Shown: one piece after another, positions 1 to 3,346 of the stretch
Position numbering within the stretch: the first letter of the stretch is position 1
Layout: every line of letters begins with the position of its first letter
Source: a virus
Lineage: Duplodnaviria; Heunggongvirae; Uroviricota; Caudoviricetes
Virus record (IMG/VR): IMGVR_UViG_2529292726_000026
DNA: 3,346 bases
Strand: one strand, 5' to 3'
Program-made: the position numbers and the translations under genes
Notes under the pieces: model-generated
Database searches by the model: none
Seen by the model: only the letters and a program-made list of their open reading frames with translations
What the model was told of the DNA's origin: nothing

Positions 1-612
1 ATGGCAGCAGTAAAAATCTCAGGTGTGCTGAAAGATGGTGCGGGAAAACCAATACAGAACTGCACTATTCAACTGAAGGCAAAGCGTAACAGCACCACGG
101 TACTGGTGAACACGGTGGCCTCTGAAAATCCGGATGAAGCCGGGCGTTACAGCATGGATGTTGAGCATGGCCAGTACAGCGTCACCCTGCTGGTTGAAGG
201 TTTTCCGCCTTCACATGCCGGAACCATTACCGTCTATGAAGGTTCCAGACCAGGTACGCTGAATGATTTTCTCGGTGCCATGACGGAAGATGATGTCATG
301 CCGGAGGCATTGCGTCGTTTTGAGGCAATGGTGGAAGAAGCGGCACGCAACGCCGAAGCCGCCTCTCAGAGCGCAGCGGCGGCAAAGAAATCCGAAACTG
401 CAGCGGCATCATCGAAGAACGCGGCGAAAACCTCAGAAACGAATGCAGCTAACAGCGCACAGGCGGCAGCGTCCTCGCAGACTGCATCGGCAAACTCCGC
501 GACAGCAGCCAAAAAATCAGAAACCAACGCGAAAAACAGCGAGACAGCCGCAAAGACGAGCGAAACCAACGCAAAGTCCAGCCAGACGGCAGCGAAGACC
601 AGCGAAACGTAA
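1..612 (+). CDS. stf: Side tail fibre protein, N-terminal fragment (lambda Stf-like proximal domain followed by Ala/Ser/Thr-rich fibre repeats); ends at TAA 610-612
   Basis: Seen: ATG at 1, open in frame 1 to TAA 610-612. The first ~110 aa (MAAVKISGVLKDGAGKPIQNCTIQLKAKRNSTTVLVNTVASENPDEAGRYSMDVEHGQYSVTLLVEGFPPSHAGTITVYEGSRPGTLNDFL...) closely match the N-terminus of lambda Stf as recalled from memory. From about aa 120 onward the product is low-complexity KTSETNAK / AAKSSQ-type repeats typical of the Stf family. The length (203 aa) is far too short for a fibre, so this is a fragment. Confidence 0.8.
   Translation: MAAVKISGVLKDGAGKPIQNCTIQLKAKRNSTTVLVNTVASENPDEAGRYSMDVEHGQYSVTLLVEGFPPSHAGTITVYEGSRPGTLNDFLGAMTEDDVMPEALRRFEAMVEEAARNAEAASQSAAAAKKSETAAASSKNAAKTSETNAANSAQAAASSQTASANSATAAKKSETNAKNSETAAKTSETNAKSSQTAAKTSET
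553..608 (+). repeat. 56-bp direct repeat, copy 1 (55/56 identical to 747-802)
   Basis: Seen: aagacgagcgaaaccaacgcaaagtccagccagacggcagcgaagaccagcgaaac. The single mismatch is c567 versus t761. Read in frame 1 it encodes KTSETNAKSSQTAAKTSET. Confidence 0.9.
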
Positions 613-614
613 GC

Positions 615-2354
615 GTGCAGCAAGAACCAGTATTGACGGCGAAAAATAGCCAGAATGCAGCAGCCGAAAGCGAGAGCGCGTCAGCCGGTTCTGCGACTGC
701 AGCAGCTGGATCAGCAACTGCTGCGGCTAACAGCCAGAAAGCAGCGAAGACGAGCGAAACTAACGCAAAGTCCAGCCAGACGGCAGCGAAGACCAGCGAA
801 ACAAATGCCAAAGCCAGCGAAACTGCGGCGAAAAGCAGTCAGGATGCAGCAGCCGAAAGCGAGAGTGCTGCAGCTGGTTCTGCAAGTGCGGCGGCTGCTT
901 CTGCCACTGCATCAGCAAACAGTCAAAAAGCTGCAAAAACCAGTGAAACCAATGCAAAGACAAGCGAGACTGCAGCGGCGAACTCGGCGCAAGCATCGGC
1001 AGCAAGCCAGACAGCAGCTAAAGCAAGTGAGGATGCAGCCAGAGAGTATGCAAGCCAGGCAGCAGAGCCGTATAAATATGTCTTACAGCCACTGCCTGAT
1101 GTGTGGATACCGTTTAACGATTCACTGGATATGCTTGCTGGCTTTTCGCCTGGTTATAAGCAAATAACTGTAGGTGATGATGTTATTAAAATGCCATCCG
1201 ATAAGGTTGTTAGCTTCAAACGCGCATCAGGTGCAACATACATTAATAAATCAGGTGTATTAACCGTTGCTGAAGTTGACGAACCGCGATTTGAACGAGA
1301 AGGTTTGCTGATTGAAGGACAGAGAACAAACTATTTCAGAAATTCAAATACACCAGAAGCATGGAATAACACGGGTAGTGTGTCTGTTGAGTCGTTCGAC
1401 AGTGATAAGGGGTTTAACTATGGAAGGATAACTGTTATTAATGAAAATCCGACAGCACAAGGATATCAGGCAATTGCTGTAAACACGAATGATGCTTACA
1501 CCTGCCCGGCAGGTTCTTATACGACGATATCGTGTCTGACGAAAAGTGATAATTCCCGGTGTCGTGCAAGGTTCGGAAAAATGTCTGATAATGGTGCGTT
1601 TGTTTTTCATTCAGATGCAGCTCTGGATCCTGTTACGGGAAATGTTGTTCATGGAAATAATGTGACGGTGACGGCAGAAAGAGTCGGTGAATGGTGGTTG
1701 TTTACCGCCACTCTTTTTGCAGATGCGGAAATGATAATCAGCTCAAGATTTGAAATCCTGGCGATGCCTGGAATCAGTATTATCCCCAATGGCTCTACGT
1801 TAGATATTGCGATGCCTCAGGCGGAGATTGGGTCGTACAGGACGTCATTTATCATTACTGAAGGGGCTCCTGGCACTCGCTCCAGCGACATGGTGACAAT
1901 ACCTGTAAGAAACAATATTCACCGATTACCATTCAGTGCTCTTGTTGAAGTTAATAAAAACTGGGATATCCCTCCCAGCAAATCACCATTAATCTTTAAT
2001 GTTAAAGATTATCAGGAAAATGGTCTGTTCACGCATGGATTCCGTGGTAATAATTTCTCTGATGCCGGTTCTCCTTTTATTTCTATGGGAGGGTGTAATA
2101 AATATGTGGCAACAACCCAGAGGAAAATCATTTCAGGCTTCCGTTGTGGCGCTGATGGAGATGTTCAGGCCGTATGTAATGGTGAATTATCTGTTGCGGC
2201 AAAAACAACATGGACTTCAATTGTTCCACGGGCAGTATTGCGAATTGGAGGGCAGGGCACTAATGGGGAGTATCATCTTTTTGGTCATATCCGTAATCTG
2301 CGTATCTGGCATAAAGAATTAACTGATGCGCAAATGGGGGAGAGTATTAAATGA
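615..2354 (+). CDS. Side tail fibre protein, C-terminal fragment (fibre repeats, then distal receptor-binding region with LamG/ConA-like C-terminus); start codon uncertain
   Basis: Seen: frame 3 is open from upstream of 615 to TGA 2352-2354. Translation from about 640 continues the same repeat family as the first fragment (AKNSQNAAAESES...NSQKAAKTSETNAK). No ATG or convincing Shine-Dalgarno precedes it; GTG 615 is simply the first possible start, 2 nt after the upstream stop. The C-terminal residues (...GEYHLFGHIRNLRIWHKELTDAQMGESIK) resemble the terminal strand motif of LamG/concanavalin-A-like lectin domains (recalled motif, not searched). Confidence 0.7.
   Translation: MQQEPVLTAKNSQNAAAESESASAGSATAAAGSATAAANSQKAAKTSETNAKSSQTAAKTSETNAKASETAAKSSQDAAAESESAAAGSASAAAASATASANSQKAAKTSETNAKTSETAAANSAQASAASQTAAKASEDAAREYASQAAEPYKYVLQPLPDVWIPFNDSLDMLAGFSPGYKQITVGDDVIKMPSDKVVSFKRASGATYINKSGVLTVAEVDEPRFEREGLLIEGQRTNYFRNSNTPEAWNNTGSVSVESFDSDKGFNYGRITVINENPTAQGYQAIAVNTNDAYTCPAGSYTTISCLTKSDNSRCRARFGKMSDNGAFVFHSDAALDPVTGNVVHGNNVTVTAERVGEWWLFTATLFADAEMIISSRFEILAMPGISIIPNGSTLDIAMPQAEIGSYRTSFIITEGAPGTRSSDMVTIPVRNNIHRLPFSALVEVNKNWDIPPSKSPLIFNVKDYQENGLFTHGFRGNNFSDAGSPFISMGGCNKYVATTQRKIISGFRCGADGDVQAVCNGELSVAAKTTWTSIVPRAVLRIGGQGTNGEYHLFGHIRNLRIWHKELTDAQMGESIK
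747..802 (+). repeat. 56-bp direct repeat, copy 2 (55/56 identical to 553-608)
   Basis: Seen: aagacgagcgaaactaacgcaaagtccagccagacggcagcgaagaccagcgaaac. Read in frame 3 it encodes the same peptide as copy 1. Confidence 0.9.
2336..2344 (+). promoter_or_regulatory. Shine-Dalgarno (GGGGGAGAG) for ORF 2351-2632, inside the 3' end of the fibre gene
   Basis: Seen: purine-rich GGAG core at 2339-2342, 8 nt before ATG 2351; the stop and start overlap (ATGA). Confidence 0.6.
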
Positions 2355-2632
2355 AAGATTTAACACTCAAATTTGCAGACAGGGCCGACTTTTCGGCCTT
2401 TATGGAGAGTATTGGCTATTATGATGACGAGTCGATGCAGGATGATATTCTTATTGACGTGATAGGTAACGTGTACAAAGAAACCGGAGAACTGACTGAA
2501 GATGGCGAACCGGTATGTGTTAAGGAAGACGGATATTTTGTAAACGTGCGCATCATTAATGATGCAAAAAAATCGTCAATATTCGATAAATACGCGGTTG
2601 TTGTTGAGCATCAACTTCGTGGCTGGATGTGA
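2351..2632 (+). CDS. Hypothetical small acidic protein (93 aa), translationally coupled to the tail fibre gene
   Basis: Seen: ATG 2351-2353 overlaps the fibre stop TGA 2352-2354 (ATGA). A GGGGGAGAG Shine-Dalgarno lies at 2336-2344, about 8 nt upstream. Open to TGA 2630-2632. The product is Asp/Glu-rich with no family I recognise. Position between two fibre-related genes suggests a structural or assembly role (inference). Confidence 0.65.
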   Translation: MKDLTLKFADRADFSAFMESIGYYDDESMQDDILIDVIGNVYKETGELTEDGEPVCVKEDGYFVNVRIINDAKKSSIFDKYAVVVEHQLRGWM

Positions 2633-2641: not shown

Positions 2642-3346
2642 ATGGCTACATCGACAGTAATTCCAGGAGATATCACCACGCTAAAGGGAGATGTCAGTAA
2701 AACTAAGGAAGATATTTCCTCAATTAACGGAAAAGTATCAACGCTTCAGACTGATATGACCAGTGCAAAGCAGGATATCAGCACCAGATACACAAAAACT
2801 GAAGTTGATAATAAGCTGAAAAACAAACTGGAAGTGAATGCTCTGGAAAGCGGTAATTATGGTGGAGATTTTTACCCGCTGACTGGCCGTGAAGCATTTT
2901 ATTTATGGAATTTGGGCACGACTACAGCGGCGGCAAACCTTTATCTTAATCCTGACCCTGCAATTTCGTCTGTACTGCGGTCAACATCGTCTATTCGCTA
3001 TAAACATTCAGTAGAGACGATAGATTCAGAGCACGCCGATCTCATTTTCAGGATGCGCCCTGTGTGGTACAGGTCGCAATGCGAAAATGACAGGCGTGAC
3101 TGGGGATTCTATGGATTGATTGCCGAGGAAGTAGGAGAAATTGCCCCTCAGTTTGTTCACTGGCGACCAGCTAACGAAGATGATGCACCGGAAACCATTT
3201 CCAGCAATGGCCTTGTTGCCGAAGGTGTAATGTACGAACGTCTGGTTGTTCCACTGATTCACCATATCCAGAAACTGACTGAAAGAGTTGATGAACTTGA
3301 GTCAGAATTAAAGTTGTTATTAACTTCCCGAAGCGATATTAGATAA
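2642..3346 (+). CDS. Tail fibre domain-containing protein with C-terminal peptidase S74 intramolecular chaperone domain (234 aa)
   Basis: Seen: ATG 2642 preceded by GAGGGAGA (2631-2638), which overlaps the upstream stop; open to TAA 3344-3346. The N-terminal ~65 aa are heptad-like and polar (GDITTLKGDVSKTKEDISSINGKVSTLQTDMTSAKQDIS...). The C-terminal ~110 aa (SSIRYKHSVETIDSEHADLIFRMRPVWYRS...GFYGLIAEEVGEIAPQFVH...NGLVAEGVMYERLVVPLIHHIQKLTERVDELESEL) follow the recalled S74 / endosialidase-chaperone pattern, including a Ser-x4-Lys dyad at S116 and K121. Confidence 0.85.
   Translation: MATSTVIPGDITTLKGDVSKTKEDISSINGKVSTLQTDMTSAKQDISTRYTKTEVDNKLKNKLEVNALESGNYGGDFYPLTGREAFYLWNLGTTTAAANLYLNPDPAISSVLRSTSSIRYKHSVETIDSEHADLIFRMRPVWYRSQCENDRRDWGFYGLIAEEVGEIAPQFVHWRPANEDDAPETISSNGLVAEGVMYERLVVPLIHHIQKLTERVDELESELKLLLTSRSDIR
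2987..3316 (+). other. Peptidase S74 (intramolecular chaperone, auto-cleaving) domain within CDS 2642-3346; putative catalytic Ser codon 2987-2989, Lys codon 3002-3004
   Basis: Motif-level comparison to endosialidase C-terminal chaperone domains (catalytic Ser-Lys dyad in an SDRRLK-like context; here SSIRYK), followed by a GLIAQEV-like segment (here GLIAEEVGEIAPQFV) and a C-terminal helix. Domain boundaries are approximate. Confidence 0.7.

Follow-up and report, generated by a model that had tools for sequence, protein, structure and literature searches.

A described counterpart of the locus analysed here is the side tail fibre gene (stf) of laboratory lambda; in lambda PaPa, this gene carries a frameshift mutation (PMC12617516, citing Hendrix and Duda 1992). 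Comparable events are also known from insertion sequences (IS). For ISApl1, IS30 and IS629, deletions of approximately IS length between 2-4-bp microhomologies were reported, some of which reach into the IS (bioRxiv 10.1101/2023.06.07.543989). The element that is relevant here, ISEc22, is 2454 bp long and belongs to the IS66 family (PMC5001619), which generates 8-bp target duplications (PMC6778807); the start GTAAGCG also occurs in the IS66-family element ISPsk01 (PMC12888890). In this study, we analysed a stretch of 3,346 nt from a Caudoviricetes virus record (IMGVR_UViG_2529292726_000026; hereafter, the window), in which stf of a lambdoid E. coli prophage is split into two reading frames. 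Based on sequence comparison, we consider it likely (probability of roughly 0.8) that the gene was inactivated by an insertion of ISEc22 that was later almost wholly deleted, and that the scar it left makes stf an ordinary IS-scarred pseudogene.

Structure of the split stf gene

In the window, stf consists of two open reading frames (ORFs) on the plus strand, 1..612 (frame 1, 203 aa) and 615..2354 (frame 3, 579 aa). The first, ENB13935.1, is the truncated 5' part of the gene and contains the prophage tail fibre N-terminal domain, with PF08400 (phage_tail_N) covering residues 3-132 (E=1e-67). This domain, together with a location behind J and lom in a tail module of the lambdoid type, identifies the product as a member of the lambda Stf family; the order J - lom - stf was found in the relatives and in phage IdasGreatGrand. 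The 3' part, which is read in frame 3 at 640..2354 (+), is collinear with the intact 782-aa relatives from residue 212 to residue 782. It appears in the draft annotation as ENB13936.1, a 579-aa protein with a start at GTG 615, the first eight codons of which are IS-derived. Two further plus-strand features lie outside the lesion, i.e., a 93-aa ORF of the fibre module at 2351..2632, the start of which overlaps the stf stop (ATGA), and a 234-aa tail fibre domain protein with a Peptidase_S74 chaperone domain at 2642..3346.

At the place of stf, a single intact CDS of 2349 nt (782 aa) is found in the complete genomes that are closest to the window (99.0% identity, e.g., NZ_CP019029). A comparison with close homologues, which had been proposed as a check when the window was first interpreted from its letters and ORFs (the sequence-only reading), revealed a single uninterrupted 782-aa ORF in every close relative. 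The difference between the window and these relatives is limited to 610-637, where 28 nt stand in place of 23 nt between identical flanks; over nt 1-608 there is one SNP. The genuine fibre coding of the 5' part ends at 608/609, and the stop codon comes from the IS remnant described below. Much of the sequence-only reading held up in this comparison. The ORF calls confirmed that frame 1 closes at TAA 610-612 and that fibre coding is back in frame 3 from about 640. The odd segment in between was described as about 5 nt longer than the equivalent segment after copy 2; relative to the closest complete genomes, the excess of the window is exactly 5 nt, which means that the reported "-1" frame change equals a net gain of 5 nt from frame 1 to frame 3. 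The segment also falls outside the repeat pattern as had been claimed, the 21/42-nt periodicity of the Ala/Ser/Thr-rich region being real.

An ISEc22 end inside stf

Positions 609..639 (+) of the window consist of GTAAGCGTGCAGCAAGAACC, an inserted A at 629 and GTATTGACGG. Thirty of these 31 positions match the end of ISEc22, namely IS nt 1-30 of the terminal inverted repeat at the tnpC-proximal end, and such a match to a known IS terminus places the segment far beyond chance. The terminus starts with 5'-GTAAGCG, as in the IS66 family, and is identical to the ISEc22 end save for A629. The sequence-only reading had thus correctly singled out the segment as anomalous but missed that it originates from an IS. 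This origin is unambiguous only for 610-636, because G609 and the CGG at 637-639 are common to stf. The left junction of the scar reads GACCAGCGAAACGTAAGCGTGCAGCAAG and the right joint GTATTGACGGCGAAAAATAGCC. Directly in front of the remnant, the 8-bp ISEc22 target AGCGAAAC occupies 601..608 (+); it is present in a single copy, the second copy of the duplication being missing from the window. Since the window also contains no tnpA, tnpB or tnpC and no second inverted repeat, the feature is the remnant of an element rather than an element. The same ISEc22 end was found at about 5200 places in 2346 of the 5426 complete E. coli genomes and at about 2600 plasmid places, in both cases beside unrelated genes.

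Thousands of IS copies were compared, from E. coli genomes, plasmids and GTDB species representatives, and in none of the full-length matches was A629 present; an extra event or a sequencing error is needed to account for this base. A multi-switch reading of the extra A, based on the CCAGT that is common to stf and the remnant, was found to be less parsimonious than a 1-nt insertion because the GTATTGACGG that follows the A is IS-specific. Two other explanations of the whole segment were dismissed. An error burst or a repeat-collapse consensus, which had been prompted by many small "indels" in the alignment, does not agree with a contiguous IS-end match, and a templated origin nearby (quasipalindrome or template switch) was discarded as there was no second copy of the 28-mer in the window at up to three mismatches.

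The nature of the segment also bears on whether stf was broken by a simple lesion of the lambda PaPa type, i.e., a small indel or point mutations in the gene with no mobile element involved. Such a lesion would be compatible with the small net length change (+5 nt) and with two consecutive ORFs in different frames, which is the arrangement in laboratory lambda (PMC12617516). However, instead of a small indel in native sequence, 28 consecutive IS-derived nt unlike those of all of the relatives replace 23 nt, the match to the IS terminus covers 30 of 31 positions when the shared flanking bases are counted, and a full IS is located at the same position in another strain, E. coli 510016. The probability that remains for a simple lesion is negligible.

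Two frames and their possible expression

The scar carries TAA 610-612, which comes from the family-typical GTAAGCG terminus, as well as GTG 615-617 and TGA 634-636; both frame-1 stops (610 and 634) and the GTG are of IS origin. It had been suggested, as a less likely option, that stf could be expressed despite the break. Programmed recoding (-1/+2 past the TAA) would yield a full-length fibre, and termination-reinitiation at GTG 615 would yield two functional polypeptides. The geometry would permit this: frame 3 is open from 453, which gives a 160-nt overlap with frame 1, and GTG 615 sits 2 nt past the stop, close enough for translational coupling. The signals, however, do not accompany the geometry. 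An X_XXY_YYZ heptamer is absent from 453-612, and GTG 615 is preceded by AGCGAAGACCAGCGAAACGTAAGC, in which, as already stated in the sequence-only reading, there is no Shine-Dalgarno. No promoter-like site was detected around the scar, so that the idea of the TTGACG of the remnant acting as an outward promoter was rejected, and the window contains no Rfam elements. Moreover, the two-frame arrangement is not conserved; with neither a slippery site in the frame overlap nor conservation among the homologues, the locus does not resemble a case of programmed frameshifting. A fused product would have about nine foreign residues in its shaft, while a separate C-terminal piece would be devoid of the PF08400 attachment domain. 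As the relatives all have one ORF whose sequence differs at this point, and the stops and the GTG are accidental products of the IS end, we give recoding and reinitiation very little credence.

A complete ISEc22 at the same position in E. coli 510016

In E. coli 510016 (NZ_CP025851.1, 4674655-4677108), a complete 2454-nt ISEc22 with tnpA-tnpB-tnpC is located in stf and is flanked on both sides by AGCGAAAC, which forms a perfect 8-bp duplication. This copy and the remnant in the window share the gene, the nucleotide position, the orientation and the octamer. In both strains, the N-terminal frame stops after 203 codons, and in 510016 this frame is annotated as a pseudogene. Whereas 510016 has the whole element and both target copies, in the window there are 30 nt of one end (plus one A), and 26 nt of stf are gone. 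The targets of ISEc22 in an unbiased sample of 21 were diverse with a weak A-rich/C bias, which AGCGAAAC fits; the shared site and orientation in two strains therefore indicate a true insertion and not a coincidence of sequence. Judging from these shared features, the insertion in the window and that in 510016 probably represent one event. The stf flanks of the two strains diverge by 1-3%, with differences at 19 of 608 positions in the 5' parts, and their prophages occupy different chromosomal sites, so descent from one insertion event would need later recombination. A shared IS200C insertion, which was considered as proof of common descent with 510016, lost weight because the IS200C landmark occurs in 151 genomes and the prophage loci are different.

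The distance between the alleles (flanks about 3% apart, prophages at different loci) could also be attributed to a one-step origin, in which abortive or one-ended transposition, or break repair, directly brought in a short end fragment of ISEc22 and a full-length copy was never present, or to a variant of this, in which a second independent insertion at the 510016 site was followed by a deletion. The fit of AGCGAAAC to the target bias is in accordance with such a repeated use of the site, but the target preference of ISEc22 is weak. Furthermore, the first base of the remnant is the very tip of the IS and immediately follows the 8-bp target that was used in 510016, in the same orientation, and an insertion followed by a deletion accounts for all of the bases but one. 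A one-step or independent origin is, in our estimation, highly unlikely.

Probable insertion followed by deletion

The insertion of ISEc22 and its subsequent loss may be reconstructed in three steps. In the first, the product of which is seen in 510016, ISEc22 would have been inserted into stf after nt 608 with the tnpC-proximal end toward the 5' part of the gene, thereby duplicating AGCGAAAC. In the second, a single 2458-bp deletion would have joined IS nt 30 to stf nt 635 over CGG, a 3-bp microhomology at 637..639 (+) that corresponds to both IS nt 28-30 and stf nt 632-634 (intact-gene numbering). Such a deletion, which is nearly the exact length of the IS and shifted about 30 bp rightward, would have eliminated 26 nt of stf along with IS nt 31-2454 and the second copy of the target. 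In the third, the 1-nt insertion A629 may have arisen in the remnant, or it may already have been present in the parental IS copy. The outcome would be 31 foreign nt for 26 native nt (net +5). With its terminus GTAAGCG, the IS would provide an in-frame TAA that ends translation after 203 codons, and the remainder of stf would be left in another frame with no ribosome-binding site. When the intact gene, the IS and one 2458-nt deletion were combined, the reconstruction reproduced the window base for base except for A629; its joint falls between TTGACGG and GGATG in the IS and between ACTGCGG and CGAAAA in stf. The most likely route of the deletion would be host- or transposition-associated illegitimate recombination between microhomologies, as was documented for other IS losses. 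Of the two causes that the sequence-only reading had offered for a pseudogene, imprecise recombination comes closest to the evidence, while a simple indel does not explain a 31-nt IS remnant in place of 26 nt of the gene.

Occurrence of the scar and reliability of the assembly

A single contig of a 2013 draft, that of E. coli 2875150 (APXK01000151.1; assembly GCA_000356245.1), carries the scar. The scar was present in none of the 5426 complete E. coli genomes, one of which has the stf::IS junction, and no independent copy of the scar or the junction was found in metagenome or viral contigs. The 190-250-aa members of the 90% protein cluster, which were considered as other truncated alleles, turned out to be contig-end partials with the canonical sequence. 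A search of the literature for the sequencing method used for strain 2875150 yielded nothing relevant.

With one draft and no replicate, an assembly error, which was already among the alternatives in the sequence-only reading, has to be weighed. In that case, a complete ISEc22 would still be present in stf of 2875150, as it is in 510016, and its first 30 or so nt would have been wrongly abutted to the downstream stf contig by the assembler or during gap closing; stf would be disrupted by the IS all the same, but there would in reality be no scar, no 2458-bp deletion and no A629. The 30 retained IS nt are what a de Bruijn unitig with k=31 keeps at a repeat boundary, an error at the contig end could account for A629, and many drafts break in the repeat-rich stf. 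However, the joint shares only 3 nt, which is too few for an overlap- or k-mer-based join, and the right-hand contig would need to lose the opposite end of the IS together with the second copy of the target and 26 nt of stf, all of which form unique junction sequence. The contig itself begins inside IS200C, an expected break at an IS repeat, and keeps 97 nt of it, so the repeat overhang is not about 30 nt. Additionally, drafts normally just break at ISEc22, and in another short-read draft the contigs end 59-62 nt into the same ISEc22 end. The contig is otherwise accurate over the adjacent 10 kb, where 11 mismatches and a 1-nt gap separate the draft from a finished genome. An assembly error is thus conceivable for a single draft but unlikely, given that the joint has only 3 nt and that 26 nt of fibre sequence, which is unique, are absent.

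Comparison with described systems

Lambda PaPa and the window are alike in that a homologous stf with the PF08400 N-terminal domain is divided into two ORFs in different frames, and to this extent the analogy with lambda drawn in the sequence-only reading stands. The lesion is of another kind: a frameshift mutation inside the gene in lambda PaPa, and in the window a 31-nt IS remnant for 26 nt, with a stop codon inside the remnant. The two genes are also broken at different points and differ in the C-terminal (receptor-binding) part of the protein. The expected outcome is the same, i.e., the loss of side fibres, with which lambda still forms plaques. If the window follows lambda PaPa in this, no side tail fibres would be expected to assemble from the locus: the N-terminal fragment would be devoid of the receptor-binding part, and the C-terminal part, should it be made at all, would be devoid of the tail-attachment domain.

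The proposed deletion also resembles the losses of ISApl1 (Tn6330), IS30 and IS629 with IEE. As in those cases, the deletion is close to the IS length (2458 vs 2454 bp in the window), and one endpoint lies in the IS and the other in the flanking DNA; the CGG joint is within the range of 2-4-bp microhomologies. A deletion of about the IS length with a 30-bp offset and a 3-bp joint is the signature that was attributed to strand switching in the copy-out step of IS30/IS3-type elements. In contrast, ISApl1, IS30 and IS629 belong to the IS30 and IS3 families, which use copy-out-paste-in, and their losses depend on the transposase and/or IEE and form a series, whereas ISEc22 belongs to the IS66 family and the window is a single case. 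It is doubtful, though worth some consideration, that the scar is a natural record of the imprecise excision of an IS66-family element.

Conclusions

The result is mainly of value for annotation. The 203-aa ENB13935.1 and the 579-aa ENB13936.1 are best seen as the two halves of one probable pseudogene, in which the stop of the former is the TAA of an IS66-family terminus and the start codon of the latter is IS DNA. An odd short stretch in a repetitive gene can be traced by a search against many genomes, where matches in many unrelated contexts reveal the end of a mobile element. The locus opens no new question; it would be one further case of prophage tail fibre decay through IS activity and one possible example of an imprecise IS66-family loss. 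If ISEc22 scars were found to be recurrent, this would suggest that the IS66 family uses a copy-out-paste-in pathway and is subject to the same abortive-transposition or IEE-like removal.

Results and Discussion

The side tail fibre gene (stf) of the window is split into an ORF of 203 aa in frame 1 (1..612), which is ended by the TAA at 610-612, and an ORF of 579 aa in frame 3 (615..2354) that has GTG as its start codon. PF08400, the N-terminal domain of prophage tail fibres, was detected in the 203-aa product (E=1e-67). Among complete E. coli genomes, the closest ones share 99.0% identity over the full window length and have one 2349-nt CDS (782 aa) at this place, located in a lambdoid tail module downstream of J and lom. 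The same arrangement was found in the phage IdasGreatGrand, and all of the relatives encode a single ORF. A global alignment showed that the window is longer than the relatives by exactly 5 nt and that the entire difference is confined to 610-637, where the window reads TAAGCGTGCAGCAAGAACCAGTATTGAC (28 nt) and the relatives AATGCCAAAGCCAGTGAAACTGC (23 nt), with identical flanks. The sequence-only reading, which had reported a stop, a frame change and a non-repeat segment that was about 5 nt longer, was therefore accurate in every point; the 21/42-nt periodic repeat pattern that surrounds the segment is also real.

The odd segment within stf was absent from the 5426 complete E. coli genomes that were searched, the best match over 81 nt (82%) being the canonical stf sequence. 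Searching with 40 nt centred on the segment nevertheless gave 92-95% matches in thousands of records, adjoining unrelated genes (inaA, tape-measure genes and a fimbrial usher) and on plasmids, as a mobile-element end would. The three match places that were inspected held the same 2454-2455-bp element, which encodes tnpA, tnpB and an 'IS66-like element ISEc22 family transposase', has the ends GTAAGCGTGCAGCAAGAACCGTATTGACGGGG... and ...GACGACGCTTAC, and is flanked in every copy by an 8-bp direct repeat whose octamer differs from copy to copy. ISEc22 has been catalogued as a 2454-bp member of the IS66 family (PMC5001619), IS66 duplicates 8 bp of its target (PMC6778807), and the inverted repeats of another IS66-family element also begin with GTAAGCG (PMC12888890). 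Window 609-639 corresponds to the first 30 nt of the tnpC-proximal ISEc22 end plus an extra A at 629. Occurrences of this end number about 5200 in E. coli genomes (2346 of the 5426) and about 2600 on plasmids; none of the full-length matches in the E. coli genomes, plasmids and other records searched had the extra A. An exact 35-nt ISEc22 end was also present in a 1112-nt contig of a Streptococcus sanguinis assembly (NZ_JAHZOW010000016.1), most likely as enterobacterial contamination.

Of the three inspected places, one lies in E. coli 510016 (NZ_CP025851.1) and is the same stf gene; this strain has the only complete E. coli genome among the 5426 with the stf::ISEc22 junction. Here, a full ISEc22 follows the nucleotide equivalent to window 608, in the orientation of the window remnant and with the target duplication AGCGAAAC (window 601-608). 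The N-terminal reading frame, annotated as a pseudogene, likewise has 203 codons and stops at the TAA of GTAAGCG. When we restored the window's gene to its intact form (782 aa), added the 510016 ISEc22 copy with an 8-bp duplication and removed 2458 nt from IS nt 31 through stf nt 634, the reconstructed sequence equalled the window at every base but A629. The joint lies within a 3-bp microhomology (...TTGACGG|GGATG in the IS, ...ACTGCGG|CGAAAA in stf), and the deletion differs from the IS (2454 nt) by 4 nt, so that it would in effect be an 'excision' shifted about 30 bp to one side. The split of stf is real and traces to a 31-nt scar left by an IS66-family insertion sequence, neither to a simple frameshift nor to a recoding site; a full ISEc22 would have inserted into stf and then been lost imprecisely. 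Documented examples of this pattern are ISApl1 lost from Tn6330, IS30 and IS629 with IEE (bioRxiv 10.1101/2023.06.07.543989), where the deletions approximate the IS in length, run between 2-4-bp microhomologies and may have endpoints inside the IS; the window scar resembles them in deletion length and short joint, although its element belongs to the IS66 family.

The window spans nt 109-3454 of contig APXK01000151.1 in the draft assembly GCA_000356245.1 of E. coli 2875150. Contig positions 1-108 comprise 97 nt of the IS200C right end and an 11-nt native spacer, followed by the stf ATG. The scar is without an independent replicate because this contig is the only recorded source of the 203-aa and 579-aa products and both junctions were absent from the metagenome, viral and species-representative contigs searched. 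An assembly artefact, in which case stf would still be disrupted by a full ISEc22 copy, is nevertheless unlikely. The 3 nt shared at the joint are too few for any overlap- or k-mer-based assembler, and a mis-join would also have had to lose 26 nt of stf together with the opposite IS end and the duplicate target copy, all of them forming unique junction sequence. Moreover, the adjacent 10 kb of this contig align to a finished genome with 11 mismatches and a single 1-nt gap. The contig starts inside IS200C with 97 nt kept, so this assembler breaks at IS repeats with an overhang longer than 30 nt, and in another short-read draft the contigs just stop 59-62 nt into the same ISEc22 end.

Annotation of this region was uneven. 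Identical DNA (3001-5349 of both loci) was annotated by the same pipeline as one 782-aa CDS in Ecol_881 but as a pseudogene fragment, an antisense 'hypothetical protein', another hypothetical protein and a 'phage tail protein' in AH50; apparently, the Ala/Ser/Thr-rich repeats make gene prediction unstable. Many 'partial' tail fibre N-terminal proteins of 190-250 aa from public drafts (P0002-P0015, clustering with window 1-609) were rejected as true truncated alleles; they are contig-end truncations in the repeat region with canonical sequence. Additionally, the window differs from the otherwise near-identical Ecol_881 by substitution clusters at 2839-2911 (11) and 3112-3196 (6), both inside a 234-aa ORF with a Peptidase_S74 chaperone domain, which look like short recombination patches.

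Whether the window strain and 510016 share one insertion was also considered. In an unbiased sample of 21 ISEc22 insertions the target sites were diverse, A being only weakly preferred at -4 to -2 and C at -1; in the species-representative genomes, the 8-bp targets had A at -4 in 16/24, C at -1 in 13/24 and A/T at -3 and -2. The Escherichia sp. draft MOD1-EC7003 alone holds about 19 copies, its contigs stopping 59-62 nt into the IS. Because the targets are diverse, yet the two strains match in site and orientation, a single ancestral insertion is favoured. This reading is weakened by the different prophage loci (ompW/trp in 510016, sitABCD/uspF/ompN in the window), by the 19 differences among 608 positions of the 5' part (window 1-608), clustered at 132-185, 249-255, 315-326 and 464-537, and by the shared IS200C between lom and stf, which 151 of the 5426 genomes carry, including CFT073 and ST131 strains. 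The 220 nt tested of the IS200C region were 100% identical in 510016 only. As window nt 1001-2400 differ from 510016 at 1 position, the clustered 5' differences indicate mosaic exchange within the fibre gene; such a mosaic picture is usual in tail fibre modules. The main conclusion on the scar is the same for one insertion event or two.

The frame-1 stops at 610 and 634 and the GTG at 615 all lie within the IS-derived 31 nt, and native coding restarts at 639/640. Frame 3 is open from 453, but its overlap with frame 1 (453-612) contains no X_XXY_YYZ heptamer. No Shine-Dalgarno-like sequence was found upstream of GTG 615, no promoter-like site around the scar and no Rfam family match in the window. 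Recoding or designed reinitiation is unsupported because these searches were negative and every relative encodes one ORF. The 203-aa fragment is inferred to keep the attachment domain but to lack the distal fibre, and any C-terminal product would lack the attachment domain, so side fibres should be absent in this prophage. This expectation resembles lambda PaPa, in which a frameshift in stf blocks side-fibre synthesis and the phage is still viable (PMC12617516, citing Hendrix and Duda 1992). The stf stop overlaps the start of a 93-aa ORF (ATGA, 2351-2354), which suggests translational coupling within the fibre module, and early termination at 610 could therefore also lower the expression of downstream genes.

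The type of lesion is well known: an IS turns a prophage gene into a pseudogene and is then lost imprecisely. From one case in one draft assembly, the only mildly new angle is a scar geometry like that of microhomology-mediated IS excision, here for a family with a poorly characterised transposition pathway.
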